Source: an uncultured bacterium (GTDB lineage: Bacteria > Muiribacteriota > Ozemobacteria > Ozemobacterales > Ozemobacteraceae). Taken from it: DNA of 64,000 bases. The position numbers and the translations under genes are program-made. Location of the stretch: the NCBI GenBank assembly GCA_937949615.1, contig CALEDQ010000008.1, forward strand, positions 827,556 to 891,555. The letters are read 5' to 3'. Positions 719-39,331 of this stretch are shown piece by piece (within the stretch, counting starts at the first letter, position 1; each line of letters begins with the position of its first letter). Under the pieces are notes generated by a model. It was not told where the DNA came from. It saw nothing but the letters and a program-made list of their open reading frames with translations, and did not search any database.

Positions 719-1090
719 TTAAGCGGCCTGAGCGACAGGGGTGGCAGGTGCAGCGGCCGGTTTGGAAGTAGAAGCAGGCTCTGATTTGGTGGCTGGAGCG
801 GCAGTCGCATCGCTTTTGGCGGGCTCAGCAGCCGGGGTGGCGGCTGTTTCAGTTTTGGCCGGGGCGGCTGTGCCGGTGCTGCCATCCTTCTTTTTGGCTT
901 CGATATAGCCTGAATCACGGTAATCAGTCGAATAAAAACCAGAGCCCTTGAAAATGATCGAACTGGCAGAAAGAAGTTTGGTTCCGGCAGCACCGCATTC
1001 GGGGCAGTGCTGTGGATCGGTGCACATCATTGAATGAAAGGCATCAAAAATCTTCTCACATTTTGTGCAGCGATAATTATAGGTTGGCAT
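719..1090 (-). CDS. FmdB-family zinc-ribbon protein with a long Ala/Pro/Thr-rich C-terminal tail
   Basis: The N-terminus MPTYNYRCTKCEKIFDAFHSMMCTDPQHCPECGAAG has the paired CxxC...CPxCG motif typical of FmdB/putative regulatory zinc ribbons. An AGGAGG Shine-Dalgarno sits 7 nt upstream of the ATG. The tail is low-complexity (TAAPAKTETAATPAAEPAKSDATAAPATKSEPAST...). Confidence 0.75.
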   Translation of the reverse strand: MPTYNYRCTKCEKIFDAFHSMMCTDPQHCPECGAAGTKLLSASSIIFKGSGFYSTDYRDSGYIEAKKKDGSTGTAAPAKTETAATPAAEPAKSDATAAPATKSEPASTSKPAAAPATPVAQAA

Positions 1091-1155: not shown

Positions 1156-2937
1156 TCATAAGCCCGCAGCTTGTTCAAGAAAATTATCAAATTCACAAAG
1201 CAGCCAGGCATAGTCGTCAACGAGACCATAGCATCTGCAGACCGCTTCATTGAGCCGGGAAAAAACTTCGCCATACTCTGGTGAAGCATGTGAAAGCTTC
1301 TGCAGCTTTCCGGCACAGTCGGCAACCAGAGCAAACAGCCTTTTGTTAAACGGCGGCAGAGGAACCTGCCTGACTTGTGTCACCGTTACATGAAAGCTGT
1401 GAAATCTGCCACTGAACCAGGCATTGACCGGCAAGCTGTTCAACAGACCAAGAAGAAACATTTCCGGGTAATCAGCCGATTCTGAAACAATAAATGAAAG
1501 CGAGTTCTTGGGGTAATAGCTCTCGGTGTCATAAGCCGCGACCAGGCGCGTCTTCAGTTTCTCATTGCGGATATTCTGATACAGAAGCTTGCTGCCGGCC
1601 CAGATTTTTTCGTCGCCGGCGTAGGCAAGATGCGGGCCAAAATCGATAAAAAAACCTTCCCAGTTGATTTTGAAAGGCGCCAGCTCACGCCCTTTGAGAA
1701 CCGGGCGATAATTATCTGCCAGTCGCGAATCACTTACAAACCTTGAGACCCGGTCGGTACGCTGCAACGATTCCTGAATACCGACGCCAATCTTCGCGAT
1801 GCTGCCAAGACAAATCCCTGAAGCCTGCATTTTTTCGAAAGCTGTTTTGAGATCTGAAGACACCAGCGACTGTCGCAGCCCGTTACCAGAGACAAAAGAG
1901 TCTGAGTGGGCCTTATAAGCTTCCGACCAGCCGCCACCTTCTGAATAACCAGAATTGACCATTACCAAATATGACGGTATCGATTCTTTACCTTTTTCAA
2001 CAAACGCCACCACCGGCAAGACACCGGGAGCTGCCGGGAAAAATCTTGCCGGCAGAAGGTTGATGGCGGTTACCCTGTTTTTTTCGAATAACAGCTGCCT
2101 GATCTTCCGGCATTGATGGTTTACCAGCCAGGTATGCGAAGTCAGCATGATCATCTGTCCGTCGTCTGATAAAACGTGCAAGCCGGCTTCAAGAAAGAAG
2201 GTGTAGAGATCTTTCTCGCCTTCGCCTGTCTCATAAAGCTCGTCCAGACGATTTTTATAATCTTCATTCAGATTGACGCGGTACGGCGGGTTGCCAATTA
2301 CCAGGTCAAATCTGGTTTCTGGAGGCTGCATGAGAAAATCACGCTGTTCGAGAACCGGCCAGCCACAGTTGGGAAAAGCGCACAACAGACGGGTCAGACA
2401 GATAAACAATGCCTGCTGATCGATATCGTAACCATGCAGATTTGCAAGAAAGTCGCCTGAATTCACGCCGGCAATTCTTCGGGCATAAACTCGGCCTTTC
2501 GGCCCTTCGACTCCTTCGGACTGACAGGATTGACTCAACACTTCGGCCACCGCCATCAGAAAACTGCCATCGCCGCAGGCAGGGTCGAGTATAAGAGCGT
2601 CTTTGCCCAAAGGGTGCGACAACCCGGCAAGACGCGCCGCAAGCGATTCGGGCGTATAAAACTGACCGGTGCTGCGCTTGCGTTTCTTTTCACGCCGCTC
2701 AAGATCAGGAACTTCGCCTTCACCCGCCTGTTTAAGAACAATTTCACAATCCATTAAGGAAGTGAAGGTTTCGGTCAGATGAACGGGGGCGCCCAATTCC
2801 CGCAGAGTATCTGCGGGATGCCCGGTCGGACGGACGGAAAAACAGTCGGCAATCTTCTCGTTGAACCAGGCGAACAGCGATTTGGGTTCAGATCGATCTG
2901 ATGGATTTTTCATTATAAAATCAACCGTTATAAACAT
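1156..2937 (-). CDS. Gamma-class N6-adenine DNA methyltransferase (Eco57I/TaqI-like), apparently orphan
   Basis: The protein carries motif X (TGQFYTPESLA), motif I (LDPACGDGSFL) and motif IV (IGNPPYRV), the hallmark order of gamma-class N6A methyltransferases. It has a ~250-aa C-terminal region consistent with a target-recognition domain. No restriction endonuclease gene is adjacent. An alternative start at M9 (coordinate 2913) is possible. Confidence 0.85.
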   Translation of the reverse strand: MFITVDFIMKNPSDRSEPKSLFAWFNEKIADCFSVRPTGHPADTLRELGAPVHLTETFTSLMDCEIVLKQAGEGEVPDLERREKKRKRSTGQFYTPESLAARLAGLSHPLGKDALILDPACGDGSFLMAVAEVLSQSCQSEGVEGPKGRVYARRIAGVNSGDFLANLHGYDIDQQALFICLTRLLCAFPNCGWPVLEQRDFLMQPPETRFDLVIGNPPYRVNLNEDYKNRLDELYETGEGEKDLYTFFLEAGLHVLSDDGQMIMLTSHTWLVNHQCRKIRQLLFEKNRVTAINLLPARFFPAAPGVLPVVAFVEKGKESIPSYLVMVNSGYSEGGGWSEAYKAHSDSFVSGNGLRQSLVSSDLKTAFEKMQASGICLGSIAKIGVGIQESLQRTDRVSRFVSDSRLADNYRPVLKGRELAPFKINWEGFFIDFGPHLAYAGDEKIWAGSKLLYQNIRNEKLKTRLVAAYDTESYYPKNSLSFIVSESADYPEMFLLGLLNSLPVNAWFSGRFHSFHVTVTQVRQVPLPPFNKRLFALVADCAGKLQKLSHASPEYGEVFSRLNEAVCRCYGLVDDYAWLLCEFDNFLEQAAGL

Positions 2938-2961
2938 CGGGGTTCAACATGTTGAACCCCG
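2938..2961. repeat. Perfect 24-bp palindrome CGGGGTTCAACATGTTGAACCCCG immediately 5' of the methyltransferase start codon
   Basis: Read directly from the sequence as ggttcaacatgttgaacccc flanked by cg..cg. It lies 37 nt downstream of the wzz-like stop and abuts the ATG at 2937 on the minus strand. It could be an operator, an RNA hairpin or a terminator. Confidence 0.9.
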
Positions 2962-2997
2962 ACAGAAATAAAACCAACAAATATTAACCAGTTTTAA

Positions 2998-4221
2998 TCA
3001 GCTCGCGGCAGCGGTCTTTGCTTCCTGCTCTTTGCGGCGGCGGATGAATTCGATCAGAAAAGCGGCGAAGACACCGAGCACACCAGCACTTAGACCAGCC
3101 AGAATAACCATGATCGAGCGGCGGGGTTTCGATTTGACTTCGGGAGCCCGCGCCCGGTCGACCACTTCGAACTGACTGCCTTCTTCTGCCTCAGCAATTT
3201 TAGCCATTTCATACTGCTCGGTCAGAACGCCGAAAATCTTCGTCTTGACGCTGAGATTGCGCTGCAAACGGGCAAATTCGAGGGCCAGTTCGGGCAGAAC
3301 GCCGATCTCCTTCTCGACCAGAGCGATTTCCTTGTCGAGAGCCGAAATTTTGGCTTCTTCGGCCACCTTCTGTGCTTCGACCTTAACCAGCTCAGGAACA
3401 CTGCCCGAAGATTTGAGCAGACTTTCCTGCATCTGCAGAGACACGCCGGCGGCGATCTTCTGAGATTCAAGACCTGCAAGCTTTTCGATTACTGCTGAAG
3501 CCTGCTTTTCAAGAGTAAACATTTTGTGTTTGTCCTGAAAAACCTTGAAGTCGTTTTCAGCGGCCGCCAGTTCTTTGCTGACGATTTCAAGCTGTCGTTC
3601 TATGAACAGGCGCTTTTCTTTCTGCGGGCCGCGGGTAAAGCCACTCAGATATTCAATATAGGCACTGGCGATTTCAGCCGACACTTCTGGCGACATTGTC
3701 TCAGCAGTAATCGTAATCAGGCCTTCCTTGTCTTTATCGACCGAAACAATCTTTGAGACAGTCTTGACCACATCATCATATTTGATTTTATCCGGGGTCG
3801 GCGGGTTATCACCAACGATCGCCGGGTTGGTAGCGATACCAAACCTGGCAATGATTCGATCGCTCATGGTGCGGCTTTTCAGATAAACCATCAGATATTC
3901 AGCCCCACCGCCGCCAAGTCCAGGTATCATGCCTGCAAACGGGAGACTGCTCAAAGCACTCAGTTTACCACTTGAGTGAACGAAAATAGTTGCACTGGCC
4001 TTGAAATGGTTTGGCAGCGTCAGGCTGTAGACAGCTGTAACGACAGCCACAATCAGAGGCATCAGAACAACCAGTTTCCAGTGCTTGAGCAGAACCCTGA
4101 ACAGCTCGAAAAGGTCAATTTCGTCTTCTTCGAGACCCATAAGAATCTCGCGTTTGAGAAGTTCTTCTTTAACCTCTTTCTTCAGCTGTTCAGGATTGAT
4201 GTCGTTGAATTTTTCTGTCAT
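2998..4221 (-). CDS. Polysaccharide chain-length determinant (Wzz/GumC-like, PCP family without kinase domain)
   Basis: The N-terminal Wzz signature is EIDLFELFRVLLKHWKLVVLMPLIVAVVTAVYSLTLPNHFKASATIFV, with TM1. It is followed by a long periplasmic coiled-coil region and a C-terminal TM2 (IMVILAGLSAGVLGVFAAFLIEF). The start codon sits 3 nt after the stop of the upstream gene, indicating translational coupling. Confidence 0.8.
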   Translation of the reverse strand: MTEKFNDINPEQLKKEVKEELLKREILMGLEEDEIDLFELFRVLLKHWKLVVLMPLIVAVVTAVYSLTLPNHFKASATIFVHSSGKLSALSSLPFAGMIPGLGGGGAEYLMVYLKSRTMSDRIIARFGIATNPAIVGDNPPTPDKIKYDDVVKTVSKIVSVDKDKEGLITITAETMSPEVSAEIASAYIEYLSGFTRGPQKEKRLFIERQLEIVSKELAAAENDFKVFQDKHKMFTLEKQASAVIEKLAGLESQKIAAGVSLQMQESLLKSSGSVPELVKVEAQKVAEEAKISALDKEIALVEKEIGVLPELALEFARLQRNLSVKTKIFGVLTEQYEMAKIAEAEEGSQFEVVDRARAPEVKSKPRRSIMVILAGLSAGVLGVFAAFLIEFIRRRKEQEAKTAAAS

Positions 4222-4224
4222 GGT

Positions 4225-5346
4225 TTATTCTTCGATGATTTCAACGTTGGCGCGCGGCAGAACGAATTTTTCACCAGAAGCGGTCTGAATCTCGACAACG
4301 CGCACTTTCGCTTCAGAAGGAATGATAACCGGTTTTTCGGGAAGTGAAACGACTTTGGCAACTTCGCCAAAATGCGGCTGTCTGATGATACGCACGTTGC
4401 TGCCAATAGTCATGCCGGTATTCGGAGCGTGCTTCTGTTCGTTGATGTCAGCAACTTCGATCGGAATGACAACTTCGGGCCTGATAACGCCGGCACGAAT
4501 CTGTGTGGCGCCGTTAATCGAGGCTTTGCGGCCTTCGGCGTTTTTCAGCAGATCGAAGGTTTTCTTCGCCATATTGATCTGGCCAAAACCTTCGGTGACG
4601 ACGAGGGTGATGCCCTTGTCTTCGGTGCCGGTGATGGCAACGCCAAGGTCGTAGCCGAGGAATTCCTTGAGGTCGTGCGCATCATAACCACCGACGATGA
4701 CGCCCTTGACGCCGACTTCGACGGCCCGGGTCAGCGCGGCAGCGGTTACCAGCGAGCCACCGACCACGATTTTCCCTTTGTGCTCGATCTTGATGCTGTC
4801 TTTGTCGAGAACGTCAGATGGTGATTTTGCCGCCATTACCAGATTGCCGATCACTTCGCCGCCGATACCGAAAATGCCCTGAATGAAAGAGGCAACGGTG
4901 TTGACCTTTACCCCTTCTTCGGCGTAGACATCGTCAACGATACCGTCAACGTAGGCATGCACTTCTACCGGAATCGGCGGCTCGCGCAGAATCGCCTGAC
5001 CGGTTACAGTCGACAGGCTTTCGATGGTGCCTTTGATCGGTGAGCGCACGTAGGTTTTGAAAAAGCCGAAGAAACCCTGGGTTTCGGCGAGAACATCGTC
5101 TTTTTCAATTGCGTCGCCTTCTTTTTTAACAAGAAAGTCGGTGATTTCGCGGGCTTCACAGCCCAGCAGATTGGCGACATTCAGCGGGTAAACGTTGCCG
5201 GGCAGGTCTGTCGATGCGACGACCGTTTCAGCAGTAACTTTATCACCTTTTTTTACGAGAACCTGGCCTTTGAGAGGCAGTTTGCGTTCTTTTTCGACCA
5301 GAGTTTTAGCTACAATCTTGAGACCTGGGGTATATGCACTAGCCAT
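4225..5346 (-). CDS. Hypothetical protein (373 aa) co-transcribed with the ASKHA ATPase
   Basis: Long ORF with an AAGGA Shine-Dalgarno, 18 nt after the stop of the 604-aa gene. The product is Gly/Val-rich and soluble-looking (GIFGIGGEVIGNLVMAAK...GVKGVIVGGYDAHDLKEFLGYDLGVAITGTEDKGITLVVTEGFGQ). I recognise no family with confidence. Confidence 0.6.
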   Translation of the reverse strand: MASAYTPGLKIVAKTLVEKERKLPLKGQVLVKKGDKVTAETVVASTDLPGNVYPLNVANLLGCEAREITDFLVKKEGDAIEKDDVLAETQGFFGFFKTYVRSPIKGTIESLSTVTGQAILREPPIPVEVHAYVDGIVDDVYAEEGVKVNTVASFIQGIFGIGGEVIGNLVMAAKSPSDVLDKDSIKIEHKGKIVVGGSLVTAAALTRAVEVGVKGVIVGGYDAHDLKEFLGYDLGVAITGTEDKGITLVVTEGFGQINMAKKTFDLLKNAEGRKASINGATQIRAGVIRPEVVIPIEVADINEQKHAPNTGMTIGSNVRIIRQPHFGEVAKVVSLPEKPVIIPSEAKVRVVEIQTASGEKFVLPRANVEIIEE

Positions 5347-5364
5347 TGTTCAGTGTCCTTTCGC

Positions 5365-7179
5365 TCAGAGACCGGGATAAAGATCCATGGCTTTATACCA
5401 GGACTTCACCAGCTTAACGCGTTCAGCATTGTCTTTTGGCAGGGTGAACGGGCGACCGCGTGTATCGAAAATAAGACCGACAACGCCGCCGTGCACTTCT
5501 GATTCCATTTCACGGCCATCGCCATTGCCCATGTCAAAGCCCCATTTCGGTTTAACGAACAGCTTCGCGGTTTCACCGACTGCGAGTGGCACGACGTTCA
5601 GTTCGCCACCCTTGAGGGTTTTGCTGATCTTTTCGCCGTTGGCTTTGGTAAGAGTAAAATCGAGCACCGGCTCATCACGTTTCACATTACCGGTCGGGGC
5701 AACGCAGGTGCCGAGATAAATCAGGCAGTCGCGTTCGAAAACGCTGAGAGCGGCTTCTTCGTGAACCTTGGCAAGAACGCCGAGCTGCGGCATCATAAAG
5801 ATCGAGTCGACGGTCAGCTGGGTAATACCTTCGGGCAGGAAAGAGTCGATCAGCATCATCGCGGTCTGCTGTCTTCTCGGGGCATGCGAAAGAACGCCGC
5901 CCGAACCGATCAGCATATTGAGATCCTTGAGATTAACAAGGCTTTCACCGGTCATTGACTGGTCAAAAACGTCGCCGATGGTGCGTTCCTGCTGAATACC
6001 CTTCAGACCGACAGCAAGCGAGCGGTGCTGGTCGAATGAAAGGCGCAGAGCTTCGCGGGCGCAGGCCTGTTCGACCATCAGTTCTTCGATAAGCGAAGGA
6101 ATCGTGGTCGGGCGGATCATCTTGTTTTTGACGCGGTTGCGCAGATCTCTTTCGTCCATTTCGAAAGGAACCCAGCGCATGATGTTTTCGAGTCCGGCTT
6201 CAGCAAATACGTTGCTGATAGAATAGCTCATGCCGTAGTTGGCAGAAACCGATTTGTTATAAATGCCGCTGAAAACGCTGAAAACGTCAGTAGTGGCACC
6301 ACCGATGTCGGCACCGACAACCGTCAGGCCTTTGCGCTTTGAGATCAGCTGCATGATATCGCCTACTGCGCCAGGAGTCGGCATGATGTCTTCATCTGTG
6401 AGTTCCATAAGGTGCGGGTAACCCGGCGCATGGCTCATGACGTGCTCAAGAAACAGATGCTGAATCTTCTGACGGGTCGGCATCAGGTTTTCTTTTTCGA
6501 GAGTCGGTCTGAGGTTATCGGCGATGTCGAGAGCAACACGGTCCTGCAGGCGTTCTTTGATCAGCGACTGCGCATCTTTGTTGCCAGAATAAAGAACCGG
6601 CAGCTCGTAACCGGCGCCAAGGCGGGCCTTCGGGCTGGCAGCCGCAATGATTTCGGCCAGCTCGACGACGTGCGAAGTGGTACCGCCGTCAACGCCGCCC
6701 GAGAGCAGAATCATATCGGGGCGCAGATGTCTGATGCGCTGAATTTTCTGGTAGGGAAGTCGGCCATCATTGGTGGCCAGAACGTCCATGACGATGGCGC
6801 CAGCGCCAAGAGCTGCGCGGGTTGCCGATTCGCCTGACATGGTTTTGACAACGCCGGTGACCATCATCTGCAGACCGCCGCCAGCAGAGCTGGTCGACAC
6901 ATAAAGATCAACGCCCTTACCGTTGGTGACAGGCTTGATGATCGCTTTGCCGTCATCGGTCAGAATCTGCCGGCCGGCAAGTTCCTGAACCTCAGAAACA
7001 GCGTTGAGAACGCCCTGTGTAACGTCTTCAACCGGAGCTTCAACGGTGGTTGGGGCTTCGCCGCGCACGATCAGGCGGAAAACGCCGTCGCGCTTTTCAA
7101 TCAGAATCGCTTTGGTAGTCGTGCTACCGCAGTCCGTAGCCAGGATGCTTTGAATATCACCTTTGCTCACGAGATTCAC
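5365..7179 (-). CDS. Actin-like ATPase of the ASKHA superfamily (GlmL/MutL- or ParM-like phosphate motifs), 604 aa
   Basis: The N-terminus carries a phosphate-1 motif ILATDCGSTTTKAILIE (DxGST..K). Later there is GADIGGATTDVFSVF (DIGGxTTD, the phosphate-2/adenosine motif of the FtsA/MreB/ParM/GlmL type). The start codon is GTG, preceded by AAGGAAG. Confidence 0.7.
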   Translation of the reverse strand: MNLVSKGDIQSILATDCGSTTTKAILIEKRDGVFRLIVRGEAPTTVEAPVEDVTQGVLNAVSEVQELAGRQILTDDGKAIIKPVTNGKGVDLYVSTSSAGGGLQMMVTGVVKTMSGESATRAALGAGAIVMDVLATNDGRLPYQKIQRIRHLRPDMILLSGGVDGGTTSHVVELAEIIAAASPKARLGAGYELPVLYSGNKDAQSLIKERLQDRVALDIADNLRPTLEKENLMPTRQKIQHLFLEHVMSHAPGYPHLMELTDEDIMPTPGAVGDIMQLISKRKGLTVVGADIGGATTDVFSVFSGIYNKSVSANYGMSYSISNVFAEAGLENIMRWVPFEMDERDLRNRVKNKMIRPTTIPSLIEELMVEQACAREALRLSFDQHRSLAVGLKGIQQERTIGDVFDQSMTGESLVNLKDLNMLIGSGGVLSHAPRRQQTAMMLIDSFLPEGITQLTVDSIFMMPQLGVLAKVHEEAALSVFERDCLIYLGTCVAPTGNVKRDEPVLDFTLTKANGEKISKTLKGGELNVVPLAVGETAKLFVKPKWGFDMGNGDGREMESEVHGGVVGLIFDTRGRPFTLPKDNAERVKLVKSWYKAMDLYPGL

Positions 7180-7504
7180 CTTCCTTAACTTCCTTTTTAG
7201 ACTTTTCCAGGTCTTCGATGCGCTCGATCAGGTTCTCGATGCGATTGCGATCGCCGATGAGAGCCTGCAGCTTTTCTGTCTTGACCGGGTCAAAAATCAG
7301 TTCGAGAATCGGCCCGAAAATGACCAGACTGCTGTAGCCAACAAACGACAGCGGTTTGACCATTTCGAGCGCCATAATTACCGGAACACTCATACGACGG
7401 CTGTGAACAGCTTCGGCCAGAACCCTGACGAATTCGTCGAGTTCTTCAGGCGAAAACTTCGACTGCTCGGGGTCTTTCGGAATCGTCCACATGCCCATCG
7501 TCAA
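7157..7504 (-). CDS. Hypothetical small protein (about 113-115 aa)
   Basis: ORF with an AGGAG Shine-Dalgarno. The start is either the TTG at 7504 or the ATG at 7498. It overlaps the start of the ATPase gene by 23 nt, consistent with an operon. The C-terminus is charged and helical (ENLIERIEDLEKSKKEVKEGE). Confidence 0.55.
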   Translation of the reverse strand: MTMGMWTIPKDPEQSKFSPEELDEFVRVLAEAVHSRRMSVPVIMALEMVKPLSFVGYSSLVIFGPILELIFDPVKTEKLQALIGDRNRIENLIERIEDLEKSKKEVKEGESREQR

Positions 7505-7517
7505 AACATCTCCTGAA

Positions 7518-8177
7518 TCAGACTATATTGAGCCAGTCATGCAGCAGAAACTGGAAACGGCCGATCAGCAGAGAGATACGACCCATGACGGTGGCGCCGA
7601 AAGCGGCACCGAAGCTCAGCATCAGATACCAGATACCGACTCTGGCGACGTTGCCGTAAATCGGGCCACGATGTTCGGTGCTGAAAAAGAAGTAAAACAG
7701 ACAGGCAACCGAACCAACCACCAGAACCAGATTTGAGAAGCTCTGGAAGAAGTCGCCGGCAACAACGATCGGTCTGATCGCTTTGGCAATCTGCGGCATA
7801 AGATACTGCTGAACCGAATAAACGATACCCAGACCGGTCGATACGCCCATAACAAAGGCAACCGTAAAACGGCTGACCCATGAGTATGTAGCCGAGAACC
7901 TGAAAAGCATCAACAGACCCATGAAGCCCGGAATCAGCAGCATGTATTCAGGAGTGGCGGTCGCGGCAGCGCCGGTGGCGAACTGAGCCGGCATGATCTT
8001 CGCAAGCAGGTTCGGTTTGAGAACCTGGTGGAAAGAAATCAGTGAGAAGTAATAACCCGCCGAAACCCCGACGAAGAGATGTTCGGCAAAGCGGTAGAAA
8101 GGGTTGTCACGATAGAGAAAACTGAAGCAGCAAAGGGTGATGACGGCCCCCACCCATACTGAAAGCGTTAATGTCAT
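7518..8177 (-). CDS. Polytopic membrane protein, unknown function
   Basis: Strongly hydrophobic 219-aa product with about 6 predicted TM segments. A GGAGG Shine-Dalgarno sits 7 nt upstream. Confidence 0.7.
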   Translation of the reverse strand: MTLTLSVWVGAVITLCCFSFLYRDNPFYRFAEHLFVGVSAGYYFSLISFHQVLKPNLLAKIMPAQFATGAAATATPEYMLLIPGFMGLLMLFRFSATYSWVSRFTVAFVMGVSTGLGIVYSVQQYLMPQIAKAIRPIVVAGDFFQSFSNLVLVVGSVACLFYFFFSTEHRGPIYGNVARVGIWYLMLSFGAAFGATVMGRISLLIGRFQFLLHDWLNIV

Positions 8178-8191
8178 GGTTAGGTTCCTCC

Positions 8192-9091
8192 TCAGGCTTT
8201 CTTCTTGGCTTTTCTCTGTTCGGCGATAAACGCGATGTTACCGGCGATGATGAAAAGCATGATGATCAGGTGAGCAATCGACTGCGGAGCCATGCCCTCG
8301 CGGCCCTTGCCGAAGTATTCGATGAGTTTTTCGTATTCAGCAGCACCGGGCAGACCTCCGGTCATGCCGACCAGTTGGCCAGTCTGCAGATAAGTCACGA
8401 ATCTCGGAATATTGACCGAGGTGCAGCCTGCTGCCATCGGGCGTTTGTGTTCGCCGGCAACGCTGATGAAAGACTCGATACCACCAGTACCGGCGGTAAA
8501 GCTGACGATGATACCGACATCGGTCATGGCGAATTTGCGACCGTCAGGATTCATGAAGATCGGCATTTCTTTGGTAGAATTGCCGTCACGGTCCTGCGGA
8601 TACGGGCCCATGAAATCGCTGCACAAGGCTTTAACGTGAATGATTGCACCCGGCTTGTAACCAAGGTTTACATAGTCAACACCCTTTTCAACGGACGGTT
8701 TGCAGCCGGCAGCCAGTTTCCCGGCGCTTTTCATATTTTCGTAAGTAGACTTATAGATATCGGCAGCAGTAGAAAGAGCTGCTTCAGCCATTTCCCCTCC
8801 AAGAGGCCAGTTCCCGCCGCACAAAGGTTTCAGGTTCTTTCTGAACATGTGCGTCAGAATAGCGATGGCAGAAGGCCCGAGTTCGGGTTCAGATGCCGGA
8901 TCGAAATCGAATGAGAGAAAGCAGCGGGTGCCTTCTGGCAGCTGATCTACAAATTTATAGAGACCTTCGACACTCTTGCCGGGAAAAACGGGAAAGTCCA
9001 TTTTGAAGATCATCGGCAGCATTACTGAGAAGGCTACACACAGGAATACCCAGCGGCGATCGAGGTTTTTCAGTTTGATAAACAGTTCCAT
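8192..9091 (-). CDS. Membrane-anchored protein with N- and C-terminal TM helices and a central extracytoplasmic domain
   Basis: The N-terminal TM is RRWVFLCVAFSVMLPMIF and the C-terminal TM is IAHLIIMLFIIAGNIAFIA followed by a KAKKKA tail. A GGAGA Shine-Dalgarno is present. The gene is tightly packed, 12 nt from the upstream gene. Confidence 0.7.
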   Translation of the reverse strand: MELFIKLKNLDRRWVFLCVAFSVMLPMIFKMDFPVFPGKSVEGLYKFVDQLPEGTRCFLSFDFDPASEPELGPSAIAILTHMFRKNLKPLCGGNWPLGGEMAEAALSTAADIYKSTYENMKSAGKLAAGCKPSVEKGVDYVNLGYKPGAIIHVKALCSDFMGPYPQDRDGNSTKEMPIFMNPDGRKFAMTDVGIIVSFTAGTGGIESFISVAGEHKRPMAAGCTSVNIPRFVTYLQTGQLVGMTGGLPGAAEYEKLIEYFGKGREGMAPQSIAHLIIMLFIIAGNIAFIAEQRKAKKKA

Positions 9092-9103
9092 GATTGTGTC
9101 TCC

Positions 9104-9976
9104 TTAGCTTTCGCCACCGAGGTGTGAACGTTCGACGCCGAAGATGATCTTCATCGAGGCAGAAATTACACCAAGCATGGCGCCAATCAGAATGGCGCTC
9201 TGAGCGGCTGAACTTGGGTAAGCCATGATCCATTCCTTGATCAGGGCGATATCAAGATACTGACCTATGAAAGGAATGTAAGCGAGGTATTTCGAGACCA
9301 GATTGCCGATCGGAACGTTACCAAGCATAACGACAAAGGCGGCGCCCATCAGCAAACCGGCTTCTTTCGATTTTACACGGAAAGCGCGGAACGAAGCCGA
9401 AGCGACGAAGAAAGCAAGCAGCGAGAACATGGTTGCCTGGCCGTTTTTGAAAACACCAACAAACAGAATCTGCTGCAGGCTGTTGACCAGGTTCATGAAG
9501 CTGCCCTTCAGGCGATCCGAGGGAGCTCTTTCAGGAGTAGAGGAGCCTTCAGGGGTCACGTCGACAAGCACGTTACCTTCGGCGTCCTTTTCCACTTTCG
9601 AAACGGTAACCAGCGTTGAAGACTGGCTGTTCTCAGAGAGCAAATAATATTTCTGCCCAACCTGAACTTCTTTTTCAAACATTGGCCAGCTGCCAGACAG
9701 GAAACCAAGGATCGCCATGGTGACAAAACCGATAACGAGAACCAGGCTGTAACCCCAGCCGTCGCCTTTGCGACTGATCTTGTGCAGGTTGATGCGCAGC
9801 AGGCTGAATGCGCCCAGGACCATAGTAAAAGACATGATAATCTGAATCCACTGAGGAAACACTTCTTCGAGTGACTTGATGGTTGGCAGTGCCGGGCCGC
9901 TGAAAAAAGCGATGATCATGATGATGCCCGTCACGAATGTGATGATGAGAGGAACAGTTCTTTTAATAAACAGCAT
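9104..9976 (-). CDS. Polytopic membrane protein, unknown function
   Basis: 290-aa hydrophobic protein with multiple TM segments. It lies 13 nt downstream of the 9990-11372 gene. Confidence 0.7.
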   Translation of the reverse strand: MLFIKRTVPLIITFVTGIIMIIAFFSGPALPTIKSLEEVFPQWIQIIMSFTMVLGAFSLLRINLHKISRKGDGWGYSLVLVIGFVTMAILGFLSGSWPMFEKEVQVGQKYYLLSENSQSSTLVTVSKVEKDAEGNVLVDVTPEGSSTPERAPSDRLKGSFMNLVNSLQQILFVGVFKNGQATMFSLLAFFVASASFRAFRVKSKEAGLLMGAAFVVMLGNVPIGNLVSKYLAYIPFIGQYLDIALIKEWIMAYPSSAAQSAILIGAMLGVISASMKIIFGVERSHLGGES

Positions 9977-9989
9977 GTTCAGGTCTACC

Positions 9990-11372
9990 TCACTTCAGGA
10001 GCCGCATAAAGTTTTCGGCAAGGCTGACGAAAACAGTACCGGATGCATATTCAGTTTTGGAAATGGTTACCAGCAGAGTGCCGATGATCATGAAAACGAT
10101 AATGATCAGCTTGATCATATCCTGGCCTTTGAGAGAACCGACTTCACGGGGGTTCTTCGACAGGTAGGCAGAGGCGGCAAACAGTTCTTCACCGATCAGG
10201 GTGTAGTCGCAGGCGGCGACGAAGAACGGAATCTGCGAAGGTTCGGCAGTACCGGCGATCTGAATCGCGCCAACGGCGTTACCGGTTTCGGCGAGAATCA
10301 GAGATTCGGCGTAGAAAGTGCCGAGATAGAAACATGCGGCCGGTTTTTCGCGCATCATGATACCACCGACGCCGGCGACATAACCGAACTGGTCGTCAGT
10401 GAGGTAGTTGATACGGTCAGGTCTGAAAGCATCGGGGCGACCCTTTTCAAGGTAAGCCTGTTTAACGACTTCCTGGGCAACCGACATAACGAAAGACCTG
10501 GTCATCGGCGCATAAAGAGGTGTGTCGTATTCGGCGGTTTTTTTGGCGACATGACCCATGATGGTTACACCGGCGATGGTCTGAATGTCATCCATGTCCA
10601 TGATGCCGGGGATATAAAGAACGCCGCGACCCATTTCGGTGGCACGGCCAACGGCATCTTCAAGAGCCGAAAGGCCGCTGATTCTTCTGATGAAGAGTTC
10701 TTTACCTCTCTGGGCATGGAAAGTGTAATAAGTCACGAATGCCATCAGAGTAATGATGATCACGAGAACATTGGCGCGGTTCATGTCGAAGTAATACATT
10801 TCTTCGGCAGCAGGCGCCGGAGCGGCAGCCGGTTCGGCAACTGCAACCGCGACCGTAGGCTCGGTAGCGCTGGCAGTTTCTGAAGTTTTGGCGGCTTCAG
10901 TTGCAGGCTCAGTCTGGGCGGCCGGAGCAGCCGGGGTTTCTACTGCAGCGGCAGGAACTGCCACCGGAGCAACCACGGATGATTCAGCGGGAGCTGCTGG
11001 AGCTGCCGGTTCGGCAACTGCCTGGGCAGGCTGAGTTTCCGGAGCTGCCGGGGGAGCCGGCGGTTCAACCGGCTGAGTCTGCGCAGGAGCGGCATCAACG
11101 GCTGGAGCCGCGGGTGCAGTTTCTGCTGCAGCCGGTTCGGCGACCTGGGCAACAGGCTGTGTCTCATCTACAGCCGGGGCAACTGCTGGCTGTTCTTTAA
11201 CAGAATCAGCAGTAATTTCAGTCATGCCGGTATCGTCAACAGCAGAAGACTGAACAGGTGCGGCTGCCGGAATTTCTTCCTGCTGGGCCACAACAACCAA
11301 AGCCGATACCATACACAGGAAAAGAACCAGAAATGGCAGCAGTTTCCTGGGTGGTCGCCAGACAACGCTCAT
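9990..11372 (-). CDS. Secreted/membrane protein with an Ala/Pro/Glu-rich low-complexity region and a conserved C-terminal domain
   Basis: Start reassigned to the ATG at 11372 (MSVVWRPPRKLLPFLVLFLCMVSALVVVAQQ, a signal-peptide-like N-terminus). This ATG has a GGAGG Shine-Dalgarno 9 nt upstream. Then comes a ~170-aa PAAAP/ETAPAAP repeat-like region. A ~270-aa C-terminal domain with at least 2 TM segments follows. Confidence 0.7.
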   Translation of the reverse strand: MSVVWRPPRKLLPFLVLFLCMVSALVVVAQQEEIPAAAPVQSSAVDDTGMTEITADSVKEQPAVAPAVDETQPVAQVAEPAAAETAPAAPAVDAAPAQTQPVEPPAPPAAPETQPAQAVAEPAAPAAPAESSVVAPVAVPAAAVETPAAPAAQTEPATEAAKTSETASATEPTVAVAVAEPAAAPAPAAEEMYYFDMNRANVLVIIITLMAFVTYYTFHAQRGKELFIRRISGLSALEDAVGRATEMGRGVLYIPGIMDMDDIQTIAGVTIMGHVAKKTAEYDTPLYAPMTRSFVMSVAQEVVKQAYLEKGRPDAFRPDRINYLTDDQFGYVAGVGGIMMREKPAACFYLGTFYAESLILAETGNAVGAIQIAGTAEPSQIPFFVAACDYTLIGEELFAASAYLSKNPREVGSLKGQDMIKLIIIVFMIIGTLLVTISKTEYASGTVFVSLAENFMRLLK

Positions 11373-11415
11373 GGAAAGACCTCCAAAACGACAGAATTGC
11401 ATTTACAAGCTAGTG

Positions 11416-15430: not shown

Positions 15431-15462
15431 CGGTAGGGTGCCCTCGCGAGTGCACCCTACCG
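15431..15462. repeat. 11-bp-stem inverted repeat in the opp leader region
   Basis: cggtagggtgc (15431-15441) pairs with gcaccctaccg (15452-15462). It lies 26 nt upstream of the SBP start codon and 55 nt past the stop of the 934-aa gene. No U-tract follows, so it is more likely a regulatory or stability hairpin than a canonical terminator. Confidence 0.4.
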
Positions 15463-34875: not shown

Positions 34876-37326
34876 TTAAGCGCGGGAGGGGGAATTTTTG
34901 CCGGTCTGGCGCGGGTCGAGAGGATCATTATCGGCTTCGGGTTTGAAAACGACGACAGTGACACCAAGATCCCCTTCGCCGTAGCGACCAGAGCGAAATT
35001 TCTTTTTCCAGGGACTGCTTTTGAGATAATCGGTGATCGCCTTCTGCAGAGCTCCGGTGCCCTTGCCGTGAATAATGAACACTCGACCCAGGTCTGTCTC
35101 ACTGACGATCTTGAGATAGGTTTCGACTTCGTCGACAGCCTCTTCTACCCGCATGCCGCGCACATCGATTTCGCTTTTTATCAGGGGGCGAATCGCAAAT
35201 ACATTGCCGCCAGCCTTTTCTTTTTCAGTCGAGGACTTCTGCGAACCGGCCGCCAGTTCTGAAGCATGCACAACCATCATTTTTCCGTCGAAATCGACTT
35301 CGACACGCTTGCGGCCAGCCTGCCGGATTACGGTGCCCTGGCGCAGATTGAGTTTCCAGACTACATTCATGCCAGGCTTGAGCTCGTCAATTTTCAGCGA
35401 CGGCTTATCTGAAACCGGTGCAATACGGTCTTCTACCGGCTTATTCACTTCAGCCAGGCTCTTTCTGGTTTCTGAATGCGCCTGACGTGCCTCATCAAGA
35501 GCTTTCAGCATTTCTGGCGACTCATTTTTCGTAGCAATCTGCCGCAACCGATTGATCAGAGTTTCGATGTCACGCAATCTGGCGCGCAATTCGACGGTAA
35601 ATTCTTCGGTGAGTTTGTCGCGTTTTGTTTTGCGGAATTCCTGCAGCTGCTGGGTGGTTTTTTCGATTTCCTGCTCGCGGGCGCGCAGAGTCGACAGCTT
35701 CTGAACATAAGTTCTTCGCAGAGCCTCGGCGCGGTTGCGTTCGCGTTCGATGGCTTCTATAAGCCCTTTTTCATCGCGGCGCTCACCGGCATTAGACTGC
35801 ACCAGTTCAGCAAGAACCGATTCTGGCAGCCCGAATACTCTTGCCATCGCGAGAGCGTTACTCTTGCCGGGAATACCGATCTGAAAGCGAAACGTCGGCT
35901 TGAAGGTCTCGTAATCGAATTCCATGGCGGCATTGATGAAACCCTCGGTGGTAAACGCAACATGTTTTAGAGAATCATAATGAGAAGTCACGACACAGAA
36001 GGCGCCACGCGAACTCAGTTCTTTGAGAAAGCCTGAAGCCAGCGCCCCACCCTCGACCGGGTCAGTACCGACACAGATTTCGTCGATCAGAATAAGAGAA
36101 TGTGCGCCACCGATATCGATCATCTCTTTCAGGCGTTTGAGATGCGCGGTAAAAGTCGAAAGATGATCTTCGATGCTCTGACTCTCACCAATGTCGGAAA
36201 GCACCTGATGAAAAACCGGTATTCTGGCGTCACGGGCCGCGAGAACATAGTTGCCGGTCTGCATCAATAGAGCATTGATCCCTACTGTTTTCAAAGCAAC
36301 CGTTTTACCGCCGCCGTTCGGGCCGGTAATGATTATACAGCGCTGAGCAGAATTCATCTTTATGTCGAGAGGCACGCAGTTAGGATGGATCAGGGGATGA
36401 CGAGCCTGATTCAACAACAGATCCGACTTGTCAGAGACTTCGGGACGACTGGCCTCATATCTGATCGAGAACTCGCTGCGGGCCCGCACCATATCGAGCC
36501 AGGTGAGGGTTTCAAACTGTTCGGTCATCGCCCCGAGCGACTGATAAAGCAGTGAAGTCAGGCTGTTGAAAATCTTTCGAATTTCTTCGCGTTCAGAAAG
36601 CCGCAGCTGCGCCAGACGGTTGTTGACCGGCAAAAACTGCAGGGGCTCGATAAATACCGTCTGCCCGGTAGCAGACTGATCATGCACGATACCCTGAATA
36701 CGGCTCTGAGCCGAAGCGAGAACCGGCACGACATAGCGATCGTTGCGCAGCGTAAAATAACGGTCCTGAACGTCTTCGGCATGATGCGCCAGAAATGCCG
36801 CCAGCTGTTTCTCGATGTTGCCGACTGTCTGCGTATATTCACGGCGTATCGAGGCAAGAGCCGGTGAAGCGTCATTACGCACCTGTCCCCGGTCATCGAG
36901 ACAGTCGTCAATTCTCTGAAAAAGCCCGGAAAGCAGCGGCATGCCGCGAATCCGCTCAGCAATACGCCCCTGGGTTTTAAGCGTAATGCTGGCAGCGTGG
37001 CTGTCAAAAGCCTTTCTCAGCCCGGCAGCCGTTTCGATATTGGCTTTGACTTTGAGAAAATCTTCTGAACCGAGAACGGTCGAACCGGCCTGCAGAATCT
37101 CGATAATTTCACGAATATCGCGAAGACCGCCCGGATTGATTTTTACACCGGAATGTGAATATTCGAGGTATTCGTCAATTTCGGCCAGCCAGCCACTGAT
37201 CTGATTGGCATCAGTAGAAGGGTGCAACGTCAGAATTTTTTCTTTGGCAGCACGCGAACCGGCGAACGAAGCGATGATCGCCAGTATTTTGTTGAATTCT
37301 AAATTGTCTAATGATTTCTGTTCCAC
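34876..37326 (-). CDS. mutS2: Endonuclease MutS2 (MutS domain plus C-terminal Smr domain)
   Basis: Walker A IITGPNGGGKTVALKT is present. There is a long coiled-coil, and the C-terminal Smr domain includes IDVRGMRVEEAVDEVETYL...IHGKGTGALQ. Confidence 0.9.
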   Translation of the reverse strand: MEQKSLDNLEFNKILAIIASFAGSRAAKEKILTLHPSTDANQISGWLAEIDEYLEYSHSGVKINPGGLRDIREIIEILQAGSTVLGSEDFLKVKANIETAAGLRKAFDSHAASITLKTQGRIAERIRGMPLLSGLFQRIDDCLDDRGQVRNDASPALASIRREYTQTVGNIEKQLAAFLAHHAEDVQDRYFTLRNDRYVVPVLASAQSRIQGIVHDQSATGQTVFIEPLQFLPVNNRLAQLRLSEREEIRKIFNSLTSLLYQSLGAMTEQFETLTWLDMVRARSEFSIRYEASRPEVSDKSDLLLNQARHPLIHPNCVPLDIKMNSAQRCIIITGPNGGGKTVALKTVGINALLMQTGNYVLAARDARIPVFHQVLSDIGESQSIEDHLSTFTAHLKRLKEMIDIGGAHSLILIDEICVGTDPVEGGALASGFLKELSSRGAFCVVTSHYDSLKHVAFTTEGFINAAMEFDYETFKPTFRFQIGIPGKSNALAMARVFGLPESVLAELVQSNAGERRDEKGLIEAIERERNRAEALRRTYVQKLSTLRAREQEIEKTTQQLQEFRKTKRDKLTEEFTVELRARLRDIETLINRLRQIATKNESPEMLKALDEARQAHSETRKSLAEVNKPVEDRIAPVSDKPSLKIDELKPGMNVVWKLNLRQGTVIRQAGRKRVEVDFDGKMMVVHASELAAGSQKSSTEKEKAGGNVFAIRPLIKSEIDVRGMRVEEAVDEVETYLKIVSETDLGRVFIIHGKGTGALQKAITDYLKSSPWKKKFRSGRYGEGDLGVTVVVFKPEADNDPLDPRQTGKNSPSRA

Positions 37327-37470
37327 GGATGAACTCTGTAATAGTTATGGCGGAAATAAATACAGCCACGGATAAACACGGATGAACACGAATGAGAGGC
37401 TAGCGGATTATCTGCAATAATACGCGGTAATATGCGGGGGTTCAGCATGCCGAACCCCCGACGTTATTTT

Positions 37471-39303
37471 TTATTCTACTGTTACTGATTTAGCGAGGTT
37501 GCGGGGCTGATCGACATCAAGGCCGCGCAGATCGGCGACGTAGTAGGCGAACAGCTGCAGCGGCACGACATTGATGATCGGTGAGAAAATGTCGGAAACC
37601 TTTGGCACTTCGATGACGTGATCGGTCAGAGCTCGAATTTCGTGATCGCCTTCGGTGGCGATGGCAAGCAGGCGACCGGAGCGCGCCTGAACTTCCTTGA
37701 GGTTCGAAATCGTTTTGTCATAGAGTTCAGATTCGGTGACAATAGCCATTACCGGCATTTCGTGATCGATCAGAGCGATGGGTCCATGCTTCATCTCGCC
37801 GGCAGCATAGCCTTCGGCATGAATATAGCTCAGTTCTTTAAGTTTCAAAGCCCCTTCAAGTGCGGTCGGGTAATTCAGACCGCGGCCGAGAAACAGAAAA
37901 CTGCGGGCGTCGAGATATTTCGATGCCAGATCGCGGATCTGTTCATGCTTGTCGAGAACTCTTTCTATCTGCTGGGGCAGAACTTTGAGCTCACGGATCT
38001 TTTCCTGCACATAAGCCGGGTCGAGGACAGAACGAATCTTGCCCAGCATCAGCGCCAGAAGAGTCAGAGCGGTCAGCATGGCGATATAGGCTTTGGTTGA
38101 GGCAACGCCGATTTCCGGGCCGGCATGAATATAGACCAGACCATCGACTTCGCGGGTCAATGAAGATTCTTTCGCATTAACGATACCAAGAACCTTGGCT
38201 CCGCGTTTGCGGGCTTCTTTAACGGCAGCGAGGGTGTCGGCAGTTTCGCCCGACTGACTGATGGCTATTACCAGGGTATTCGAATCGACAAGTGGCGAGC
38301 GATACCGAAATTCACTGGCGAGATCACACTCAACCGGTATTTTTACCAGACTCTCGATAAGATATTTACCAACACAGGCCGAGTAATAAGCGGTACCGCA
38401 GGCAACCATGACGATGCGCTGGGCACGATAAATGTCTGGGCCGGTAAGCTTTAGTTCTTCGAGGTAAATCTTGCCTTCTTCTTCAGAAGTGCGACCGCCG
38501 ATAGTGTTGCGAATAACCTGCGGCTGCTCGTAAATTTCTTTCAGCATGAAGTGCGAGAAACCGCCTTTTTCTGCCGCAACAGGGTTCCAGTCGATCTGAA
38601 CCGGGTTTTTGACAACTGACTCGCCGCCAAGAGCGAAGAATTCGATGCCTGAGCGGCTGACTACGGCACCTTCAAAATTATCCAGATAGACAACTTTGCG
38701 TGTGTATTGCAGAATTGCAGTTACATCTGAGGCAACGAAGTTTTCATCCTTGCCCAGTCCGACGATCAGCGGGCTTTCTTTGCGCATGCAAACAATCTGC
38801 TCGGGGTGATCACGGTGAATTACGGCAATGGCATAAGCCCCTTCCACCGATTTGACCGCATCGAGAACTGCCTGCTTCAGATCGCCTTTATAGTTGGCTT
38901 CAATCAGGTGAGCAAGCACTTCAGAATCGGTTTCTGAAGAAAAATGGTGACCTGAGTCAGTGAGGCTTTTGCGCAGCTTCATGAAATTCTCGATGATGCC
39001 GTTATGGGCCACCATCAGAGTACTCTGACAATCGCCATGTGGATGGGCATTGAAGGCAGAAGGCCGGCCATGCGTTGCCCAGCGGGTATGCCCGATACCA
39101 ATCGTCGAGGCCGAGGCAAATTCATCGACCAGCATTTTTCTGATATTGCGCAGTTTACCAATATCTTTGCGCACATGGATTTTCTTGTCATCGACAACGG
39201 CGATGCCGGCTGAATCATAGCCACGGTATTCTAGACGGGTCAACCCGTCGAAAATCACTTCATTCGCGGGTTTGCTGCCAATATATCCGATAATTCCGCA
39301 CAT
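37471..39303 (-). CDS. glmS: Glutamine--fructose-6-phosphate aminotransferase
   Basis: Start set at MCGIIGYIG (the Cys nucleophile directly follows Met). An AAAGGAA Shine-Dalgarno is present. Two SIS domains and the C-terminal ...VDQPRNLAKSVTVE are typical of GlmS. Confidence 0.9.
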   Translation of the reverse strand: MCGIIGYIGSKPANEVIFDGLTRLEYRGYDSAGIAVVDDKKIHVRKDIGKLRNIRKMLVDEFASASTIGIGHTRWATHGRPSAFNAHPHGDCQSTLMVAHNGIIENFMKLRKSLTDSGHHFSSETDSEVLAHLIEANYKGDLKQAVLDAVKSVEGAYAIAVIHRDHPEQIVCMRKESPLIVGLGKDENFVASDVTAILQYTRKVVYLDNFEGAVVSRSGIEFFALGGESVVKNPVQIDWNPVAAEKGGFSHFMLKEIYEQPQVIRNTIGGRTSEEEGKIYLEELKLTGPDIYRAQRIVMVACGTAYYSACVGKYLIESLVKIPVECDLASEFRYRSPLVDSNTLVIAISQSGETADTLAAVKEARKRGAKVLGIVNAKESSLTREVDGLVYIHAGPEIGVASTKAYIAMLTALTLLALMLGKIRSVLDPAYVQEKIRELKVLPQQIERVLDKHEQIRDLASKYLDARSFLFLGRGLNYPTALEGALKLKELSYIHAEGYAAGEMKHGPIALIDHEMPVMAIVTESELYDKTISNLKEVQARSGRLLAIATEGDHEIRALTDHVIEVPKVSDIFSPIINVVPLQLFAYYVADLRGLDVDQPRNLAKSVTVE

Positions 39304-39331
39304 AACAGAAGAATTTCCTTTCGAAATTGTT

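Follow-up and report, generated by a model that had tools for sequence, protein, structure and literature searches.

A perfect 24-bp palindrome lying directly before the first ATG of a DNA methyltransferase gene raises an obvious question: does it control that gene, or does it belong to something else? The answer depends on what the enzyme is, on where its gene begins and on where else the palindrome occurs, and we examined all three in the window, by which we mean the whole 64-kb stretch of DNA that was analysed, and in public genomes. The methyltransferase (MTase) has the following features, with amino-acid positions numbered from the start at 2913:

1156..2937, minus strand: longest open reading frame, 593 codons from the first ATG
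1156..2913, minus strand: predicted orphan gamma-class N6-adenine DNA methyltransferase gene from its conserved start, 585 aa
2647-2667, minus strand: motif X, GQFYTPE (aa 83-89)
2560-2589, minus strand: motif I, LDPACGDGSF (aa 109-118)
2281-2295, minus strand: motif IV, GNPPY, with the NPPY signature (aa 207-211)
about 1360-1704, minus strand: TaqI_C recognition domain (TRD) by Pfam, after motif IV

The motif order X - I - IV, followed by the TRD, is that of the gamma class (TaqI/Eco57I-like), and the open reading frame matches the Pfam families Eco57I (1.8e-18), N6_Mtase (5.4e-18) and TaqI_C (3.2e-14). In the PDB the best E-value is 2e-11, with the catalytic core covered, and the top solved relatives are M.TaqI, M.BseCI and CamA. 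With these three gamma-class N6-adenine MTases the window enzyme has in common the X-I-IV order, the NPPY signature and, at the C-terminus, a TaqI-like recognition domain, and its size (585 aa) resembles that of M.BseCI and CamA, but the overall resemblance is remote. NCBIfam gave generic MTase matches alone, all of them far below curated cut-offs. We therefore describe the protein as a predicted gamma-class N6-adenine MTase with a TaqI-like TRD; the gamma-order motifs and TRD reported in the earlier note are borne out by Pfam and by the motif positions. For the class itself, Pfam and the PDB suffice.

The gene sits at the end of a co-directional cluster:

719..1090, minus strand: FmdB-family zinc-ribbon gene downstream of the MTase, with a strong AGGAGG Shine-Dalgarno sequence; position kept in most relatives
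2998..4221, minus strand: Wzz/GNVR polysaccharide co-polymerase-like gene (wzz), 407 aa, with the palindrome at its 3' end; stop codon at 2998-3000
4225..11402, minus strand: upstream co-directional cluster genes, conserved in Riflebacteria generally; listed from the MTase outwards, 373 aa (barrel-sandwich hybrid-like), 604 aa (GlmL/MutL-like actin-fold ATPase), 115 aa, 219 aa, 299 aa, 290 aa and 470 aa (DUF6754)

Within 10 kb of the MTase, no restriction endonuclease, specificity subunit (HsdS) or C-protein was detected, which agrees with what the earlier note had stated, and PADLOC and NCBIfam found neither a defence system nor an MTase partner among ten cluster genes. A restriction-modification unit controlled by a C-protein and its operator was considered as a candidate and rejected, there being no helix-turn-helix controller or endonuclease gene and the palindrome being a generic repeat. 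At least 12 Riflebacteria genomes, down to 35% identity, have the same order GlmL-like / 373 aa / Wzz / MTase, and the MTase is the last gene of this same cluster in every genome examined. Its close relatives were found in Riflebacteria only, the family E-value falling from 1e-101 to 1e-24 outside this group. The MTase is a Riflebacteria-wide orphan, inherited as the final gene of a conserved cluster. Like the lineage-conserved orphan MTases Dam, CcrM and CamA, it has no partner endonuclease and is conserved throughout its lineage; unlike them, it is restricted to Riflebacteria and always comes last in a cluster with an envelope-type (Wzz-like) gene.

Whether the palindrome truly touches the start of this gene depends on which ATG is used. 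The junction between wzz and the MTase reads as follows:

2962..2997, minus strand: spacer of 36 nt from the wzz stop codon (2998-3000) to the palindrome; the copy is 37 nt past that stop, a distance that is typical of the family
2938..2961, no strand assigned: perfect 24-bp palindrome CGGGGTTCAACATGTTGAACCCCG, extending to 26 bp at 2937-2962
2914..2937, minus strand: AT-rich 24-nt spacer from the hairpin to the conserved start; encodes 8 extra codons (MFITVDFI) in the longest-ORF call only, not conserved

All close MTase homologues begin at ATAATGAAAAA (MKN...), which is position 2913 in the window. The ATG that abuts the palindrome is present only in the window and in one relative (L107), where it is out of frame with the MTase and its own reading frame closes at a TGA five codons on; in two others (L123, L125) it is absent. 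Judged by this comparison, the predicted start of the MTase is the second ATG (2913), 24 nt beyond the palindrome. REP (repetitive extragenic palindrome) elements that seem to lie inside the 5' ends of ORFs usually reflect mis-called starts, with the true start downstream (PMC3733652). The earlier description of a perfect palindrome abutting the start codon thus stands in part: the palindrome is perfect and adjoins the first ATG, but that ATG is not the conserved start. No clear Shine-Dalgarno sequence precedes the MTase, and a sigma-70 promoter scan from the wzz stop to the MTase start found no promoter-like site, which is weak evidence, since Riflebacteria promoters may differ from the sigma-70 consensus.

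The palindrome itself had 0 matches in 100 shuffles, and RNA folding gives a hairpin of -19.4 kcal/mol (z = -5.2). In being a short, stable, hairpin-forming palindrome of 20-40 bp it has the form of a REP element. Its feet, however, are mutated, with GTCG...CGAT in place of GTAG/CTAC, so that the double foot is seen in the family and not in this copy, on which a transposase may no longer act. In the window, a second member of the family was found, no gene for a REP-associated tyrosine transposase (RAYT) was found, and Rfam returned no family at gathering score; another double-foot palindrome (15433-15460) had no copies among the fetched loci.

37435..37460, no strand assigned: second, slightly degenerate copy (CGGGGGTTCAGCATGCCGAACCCCCG), about 10 nt past the stop of an ORF at 37471-39390 (minus strand), its site orthologous to those of copies in two relatives (L074, L112)

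Beyond the window, the 22-nt core occurs at no fewer than 116 places in public genomes, mostly Riflebacteria MAGs, with at least 121 matches in at least 116 stretches; among the matches listed, 92 have the exact core and 22 a compensatory AGC/GCT variant. One Riflebacteria MAG (HGW-Riflebacteria-1) holds at least 11 copies, the 64-kb window holds 2, and further degenerate copies occur about once per 100 kb. Copies are also found in MAGs labelled as other phyla, labels which may include binning errors. The family consensus, GTAGGGGTTCAACATGTTGAACCCCTAC, spans 28 nt from GTAG to CTAC, with the feet in columns 8-11 and 32-35 conserved at 70-90%, and shows compensatory changes at pairs 19/24 (AU 87 : GC 17) and 9/34 (UA 69 : CG 16). 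The recurrence as a generic REP-like element that the earlier note had named as a finding that would tell against its reading was therefore observed, both at these places (at least 116) and in the second window copy, and the window palindrome is very probably a copy of a dispersed double-foot REP family. No paper containing the exact palindrome sequence was found in a literature search. None of 2.9 million viral contigs carries the palindrome, which gives no indication of a phage origin. A resemblance to attC and parS was considered and rejected, since length, architecture and copy distribution do not fit.

Where these copies lie is informative. Among the copies listed, 70% are intergenic (random positions: 18%), and only 5 are in spacers between divergent genes; some copies in other MAGs fall within coding sequences. 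At Riflebacteria loci most copies are 6-60 nt past an upstream stop, preceded by an A-rich tract (-10..-6 A/T-rich) and followed by a T-rich one (+6..+10, 60-72% T). The genes concerned are unremarkable: for 90 ORFs adjoining palindromes, the 25 Pfam families listed of the 93 matched are ordinary and mostly housekeeping (PNP_UDP_1, PfkB, ABC transporters, RRF, S12). At the wzz-MTase junction, the hairpin stays 24-47 nt from the wzz stop across relatives, and its distance to the MTase ATG runs from 25 to more than 200 nt (25-28 nt in five genomes, more than 200 nt in L025 and L087). The junction hairpin is kept in about 10 genomes or species whose MTases are only 49-86% identical and whose flanks have diverged, and many other copies are likewise at orthologous gene ends across species. 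It is absent ahead of more distant MTase orthologues (L119-L121, L124). With so many REP copies behind unrelated genes, the window palindrome appears to be a common kind of gene-end signal rather than a switch dedicated to the MTase.

The link to a transposase is found in relatives, where a cognate tyrosine-transposase (HUH/Y1) gene is flanked by or contains the palindrome. RAYT genes were detected by phmmer with E. coli RayT. In one Rifleibacteriota MAG (L082) the palindrome lies about 100 nt 3' of a RAYT gene (Y1_Tnp 7.4e-5), twice; in at least 10 RAYT homologues (L127-L137) it lies in frame inside the gene, translated as VGVQHVEPL, and in one of these (L137) further copies stand on either side of the gene. 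Another candidate RAYT (L113) was dropped for want of Pfam support.

Palindromes beside or inside RAYT genes are already published for subclass 2.4 double-foot REPs (PMC6006769). The double-foot REPs of TnpA_REP subclass 2.4 / RAYT group 4 (Quentin et al. 2018, PMC6006769; Bertels et al. 2017, PMC5581495) have a 5' GT[AG]G and a 3' complement C[TC]AC, as does the Riflebacteria family consensus; in both groups of elements the foot of the stem is made of G-C pairs, and both are scattered over several phyla. The window copy differs from them in its mutated feet and in lying in a window without a RAYT gene, and the consulted parts of these sources do not name Riflebacteria among the hosts. The placement rules of GTAG-/CGTC-tagged REPs, including the SMAG type, hold for the Riflebacteria family as well: they lie mostly between unidirectional or convergent ORFs, with some intragenic, near the upstream ORF's 3' end and with a variable gap to the downstream one (Di Nocera et al. 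2013, PMC3733652). In those elements, however, the tag is unpaired and at one end (PMC3733652), whereas in the Riflebacteria family it is paired and at both ends. In L107, L109 and a few others, CGTC replaces the GTAG tag on the same core.

How, then, should the adjacency to the MTase be read? The earlier note had suggested that the hairpin, if formed, would hide the ribosome-binding region of the MTase and that translation could still begin at the second ATG, clear of the hairpin; a close variant is that the hairpin covers the first start codon. The strength of the hairpin, its contact with the first in-frame ATG, its spacing of 25-28 nt to the start codon in five genomes and the lack of a clear Shine-Dalgarno sequence all speak for such control, but conservation does not extend to the first ATG, which in L107 is out of frame, the start that is conserved lies 24 nt past the stem, the distance exceeds 200 nt in L025 and L087, the hairpin is missing in L119-L121 and L124, and the same hairpin stands behind unrelated genes; we consider this very unlikely. 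It is extremely improbable that the palindrome is an operator for a dimeric regulator, or that it holds the MTase's own target and allows methylation-sensitive autoregulation, both of them suggestions of the earlier note. Perfect dyad symmetry, strong conservation of sequence as well as structure, the presence of CATG and other A-containing palindromic sub-sites in the window copy, and an adjacency to the MTase that is conserved in one clade would suit either idea. Neither survives the wider comparison, however: there is no regulator gene nearby, distant MTase orthologues lack the palindrome, and more than 100 copies, dozens of them with the identical sequence, stand behind unrelated genes, some of them in MAGs with labels of other phyla; close MTase relatives, by contrast, were found in Riflebacteria only. 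The conservation of the sequence would be explained by its recognition by a RAYT.

An explanation of another kind is that the palindrome is a selfish or neutral REP relic without a role in expression, which the permissive spacer behind wzz tolerates, and that its terminator-like flanks reflect the insertion sites that survived. The mutated feet of the window copy, its weak T-tract, the fact that the terminator scan did not call it and the occurrence of the same element even inside coding sequences in other MAGs are all consistent with this. On the other hand, the same site is occupied in about 10 species in spite of the divergence of MTases and flanks, other copies too are at orthologous sites, and the A and T tracts are position-specific; we regard a relic without a role as unlikely.

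The reading that we regard as probable is that the palindrome is a RAYT-associated double-foot REP forming the 3' hairpin of the wzz operon, with the MTase starting downstream at 2913. On the minus-strand transcript, the REP copy would form the 3' hairpin of the wzz-containing operon and there act as a terminator or attenuator and as a stabiliser of the mRNA 3' end, and the MTase would be expressed by read-through past the hairpin or from a separate putative promoter. Of the options in the earlier note, the data favour a terminator for the upstream wzz operon, and for the window hairpin as such the evidence leans slightly towards a terminator or attenuator. Of the features of an intrinsic (Rho-independent) terminator, the window copy has the stem-loop after a stop codon and, as its T-tract, only ATGTTTAT. 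The GTCG/CGAT feet, this weak T-tract and the absence of the palindrome from the list of a consensus terminator scan speak against a terminator. Intrinsic terminators have a GC-rich stem past the stop codon, as does the palindrome family, whose consensus stem is preceded by an A-tract and followed by a T-tract; in ordinary terminators, however, the stem sequence is not conserved across species and copies, whereas in the family it is. Within operons (malE-malF and related), enterobacterial REP/BIME elements stabilise mRNA 3' ends and act as attenuators, and the window element likewise lies between co-directional genes of one cluster.

Given that the hairpin is retained at this junction in about 10 genomes, it may have a part in determining how strongly the MTase is expressed. 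One could imagine that the MTase is a Dam/CcrM-like epigenetic regulator and that a domesticated REP hairpin at the wzz-MTase junction attenuates its dosage relative to the upstream genes, a proposal that we consider quite unlikely. It touches on two further observations: the MTase closes an eight-gene cluster (a GlmL-like ATPase, a Wzz-like protein and five unknowns), and the hairpin is held throughout the Rifleibacterium clade.

For gene annotation, the locus illustrates that longest-ORF calls beside REP elements mislead, and the start codon of the MTase is corrected here. The tempting story of a palindrome that controls its own methyltransferase is removed with it. What emerges is that a double-foot REP family showing the published hallmarks of RAYT subclass 2.4 is present in Riflebacteria, and that an orphan N6-adenine MTase found throughout the phylum in a fixed cluster would make a reasonable methylome target for this uncultured phylum.

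The palindrome between the wzz-like gene and the gene for the N6-adenine DNA methyltransferase (MTase) is very probably a copy of a family of repetitive extragenic palindromes (REPs), and as such a commonplace repeat of an established type. The features concerned are these:

1156-11402, minus strand: co-directional gene cluster, headed by DUF6754 in the window genome (relatives in L119-L125, loci from other genomes)
1156-2937, minus strand: longest MTase open reading frame, 593 codons
2938-2961: perfect palindrome CGGGGTTCAACATGTTGAACCCCG, extending to 26 bp at 2937-2962
2998-4221, minus strand: wzz-like gene, with Wzz and GNVR matches

As the earlier note had described it, the 24-bp palindrome 5' of the MTase is perfect; none of the window shuffles reproduced it, and on folding its RNA forms a hairpin of -19.4 kcal/mol (z = -5.2), 36 nt beyond the end of wzz, the upstream gene. 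A second, related copy lies at 37435-37460 of the window, and a family scan with the pattern GGGGTTCANCATGNNGAACCCC, using one genome per species, matched at least 116 stretches. Among the 121 matches listed, 92 carry the window's core exactly and 22 the doubly compensated variant GGGGTTCAGCATGCTGAACCCC; Riflebacteria MAGs supply most of them (at least 11 from HGW-Riflebacteria-1 alone), with other clusters in MAGs labelled Fibrobacteres, Nitrospirae, Patescibacteria and others, labels which may include binning errors. The 28-nt consensus from 106 distinct copies is GTAGGGGTTCAACATGTTGAACCCCTAC, with the feet (short complementary end motifs) GTAG...CTAC, versus GTCG...CGAT in the window copy. 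The inner stem was set by the search pattern and is thus uninformative for covariation; the variable stem positions stay paired through two-sided changes (pair 19/24, AU 87 : GC 17; pair 9/34, UA 69 : CG 16), with a covariation score of 0.156 (shuffles, 0.096; slid partners, no more than 0.075).

Several other repeats were seen alongside this family. Short direct repeats, CACGGAT(G/A)AAC, adjoin the second window copy at 37320-37395, in the spacer before the open reading frame at 34876-37326. An unrelated double-foot palindrome, GTAGGGTGC(A/C)CTCGCGAG(G/T)GCACCCTAC, stands at 15433-15460 between two co-directional genes, 55 nt past a stop codon and 25 nt ahead of the next start, and had no copies among the fetched loci. 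In MAG Fibrobacteres bog_1184 (L064, L073, L102, L116) a different palindrome, GTAGGGGCAACCCTGTGTGGTTGCCCC, often directly precedes the family palindrome, so that two REP families appear as compound units. In the MAG labelled Patescibacteria MM_PC_147 (L027, L072, L092, L110, L113) the 28-nt core caps longer perfect stems (36-42 bp) whose outer arms vary between copies; the core seems to occupy the loops of hairpins that were there before it, or else the arms seem to have arisen by inverted copying.

The family can also be linked to a REP-associated tyrosine transposase (RAYT, TnpA_REP). When every open reading frame of the fetched loci was searched by phmmer with E. coli RayT as query, a match appeared at L082:1137-1769, from a Rifleibacteriota MAG; this open reading frame has the HUH motif (MPNHVHG), the catalytic-tyrosine region (YIIQNP) and a Pfam Y1_Tnp match (7.4e-5). 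About 100 nt past the 3' end of this gene comes the palindrome, an arrangement that occurs twice, with partial gene duplication: the order in L082 1137-2344 is RAYT gene, palindrome, duplicate of the gene's 3' third (1974-2219) and second palindrome, so that gene end and REP together are locally duplicated in tandem. At least 10 of 77 metagenomic relatives, among them nearly all of those at 44-54% identity, carry the palindrome in frame within the gene, some 10-25 codons past the HUH motif and translated VGVQHVEPL. In L137, the locus's own palindrome variant stands ahead of, within and behind the RAYT gene. The wider family comprises 6094 matches, several named "REP element-mobilizing transposase RayT" by JGI, and has other palindrome-encoded peptides at that position within the gene, such as VGAKNFSPL and VGAQHAAPL. 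According to Quentin et al. 2018 (PMC6006769), TnpA_REP subclass 2.4 equals RAYT group 4, and its REPs are "double foot" (5' GT[AG]G, 3' C[TC]AC), with G-C pairs at the stem bottom, and scattered over phyla; the palindrome family and its in-gene arrangement are exactly as described there for this subclass. No RAYT gene was found within the window.

With a simple model of open reading frames, 30% of copies fall within them versus 82% of random positions, and just 5 copies lie in divergent-gene spacers; the neighbouring genes are ordinary, mostly housekeeping (25 most frequent families). When copies from Riflebacteria loci were oriented by their upstream gene, most lay 6-60 nt past its stop codon, in agreement with the REP distribution in PMC3733652. 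T makes up 60-72% at +6 to +10 after the core, -10 to -6 before it is A/T-rich with G or C nearly absent, and the outer stem reads C-G-Y-A ... T-R-C-G, which is the make-up of a putative bidirectional intrinsic terminator with a conserved hairpin at its centre. REP doublets are known to have been co-opted as terminators (PMC3337134).

Most genic copies come from one MAG, LacPavin_0920_SED3_MAG_51_16, with 16 identical 28-nt palindromes inside long open reading frames (loci L026, L031, L035, L047, L049, L055, L056, L059, L080, L083, L086, L089, L103, L104). Around them is a repeated, diverged segment with the look of a C-terminal sorting domain (...DINGRVV-GVQHVEPL-QAGSHEIQFDGS...); conservation is 100% in the palindrome but not in its flanks. 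These look like in-frame intragenic REPs of a paralogous family.

Clustering of open reading frames in the fetched loci showed orthology between species for several palindrome sites. The wzz-MTase spacer holds the palindrome in the window, L107, L010, L021, L025, L065, L060, L087, L123 and L125, and in L122 a variant whose loop is TAAT and whose perfect 26-bp stem takes in A- and T-tracts; no palindrome was found in this spacer in L119, L120 and L121 (MTase 35-46% identical) or L124. Across genomes carrying a junction copy its distance to the wzz stop is steady (24-47 nt) and that to the MTase ATG varies from 25 to more than 200 nt. From these distances and its absence at those four loci it follows that the palindrome belongs to the wzz 3' end and that the wzz-MTase adjacency predates it. 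The L119 spacer, at 30 nt and hairpin-free, suggests co-transcription of the two genes there.

On balance we favour, with some reserve, a role as terminator or attenuator: the REP copy would serve as the 3' hairpin of the wzz operon and as mRNA stabiliser, and the MTase would be translated from 2913. The reserve reflects the weak T-tract of the window copy, which the terminator scan of the window did not call. That it is a functionless relic is unlikely. A translational hairpin occluding the MTase ribosome-binding region, as proposed in the earlier note, is very improbable. The first in-frame ATG (2937-2935) does adjoin the palindrome, but MTase homologues of 78-99% identity all start MK(N/I/K)..., at the second ATG (2913). 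A spacer alignment across five related genomes keeps the ATAATGAAAAA motif there in 5/5; only the window and L107 have the abutting ATG, which in L107 soon meets a stop codon in its own frame, TGA (atg ttt ata acg gtt tga), and in L123 and L125 is absent. Because homologue N-termini and alignment both favour the second ATG, the gene is 1156..2913 (minus strand, 585 aa); the palindrome does not abut the conserved start, and the stem stops 24 nt short of it. Di Nocera et al. describe REPs seemingly in the 5' ends of open reading frames as the same mis-called-start artefact (PMC3733652). In L122 (5951-6006; MTase 49% identical) the annotated start ATGGCT falls within the 3' arm of the junction element, and this call, too, may be wrong.

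Gene-specific control of the MTase, also suggested earlier, is not supported. An operator or methylation-sensitive autoregulatory switch is scarcely credible: the sequence stands behind unrelated genes, some of them in MAGs labelled as other phyla, whereas close MTase relatives were found only in Riflebacteria, and distant orthologues lack the palindrome.

The annotation of the MTase itself is supported, with motifs in gamma order (X, GQFYTPE; I, LDPACGDGSF; IV, GNPPY), then a TaqI-like recognition domain, and Pfam matches to Eco57I, N6_Mtase and TaqI_C, each above cut-off; the closest solved structures are M.TaqI (2e-11), M.BseCI and CamA. The loop between motif I and LHGYDID (window ~2440-2560, residues ~120-160) has a hypervariable length in close homologues (P0003-P0009), several of which have peptides like RHSRVGGNPGHS or IPAAAGMT there, and the corresponding DNA of L107 (4690-4755) holds inverted repeats ATTCCCGC...GCGGGAAT; this suggests another small palindromic repeat inserted in frame.

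Its orphan status also holds: models of restriction enzymes, specificity subunits, controller proteins and defence systems gave no match among neighbours within 10 kb. Of about 99 homologues (35-99% identity), nearly all taxon-named ones are Riflebacteria or Ozemobacteraceae, beyond which matches drop to E 1e-24. Gene order is identical in every genome examined, down to 35% MTase identity: co-directional genes for proteins of ~290-300, 219 and ~115 aa, a GlmL/MutL-like actin-fold ATPase (~600 aa), a 373-aa protein, Wzz/GNVR and, last, the MTase; five of the encoded proteins match nothing in Pfam, NCBIfam or PADLOC. With no partner nearby, this taxon range and a fixed gene order, the MTase is a vertically inherited orphan, comparable in orphan status to Dam, CcrM and CamA. 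Of all this, only its phylum-wide retention within an invariant cluster is slightly out of the ordinary.
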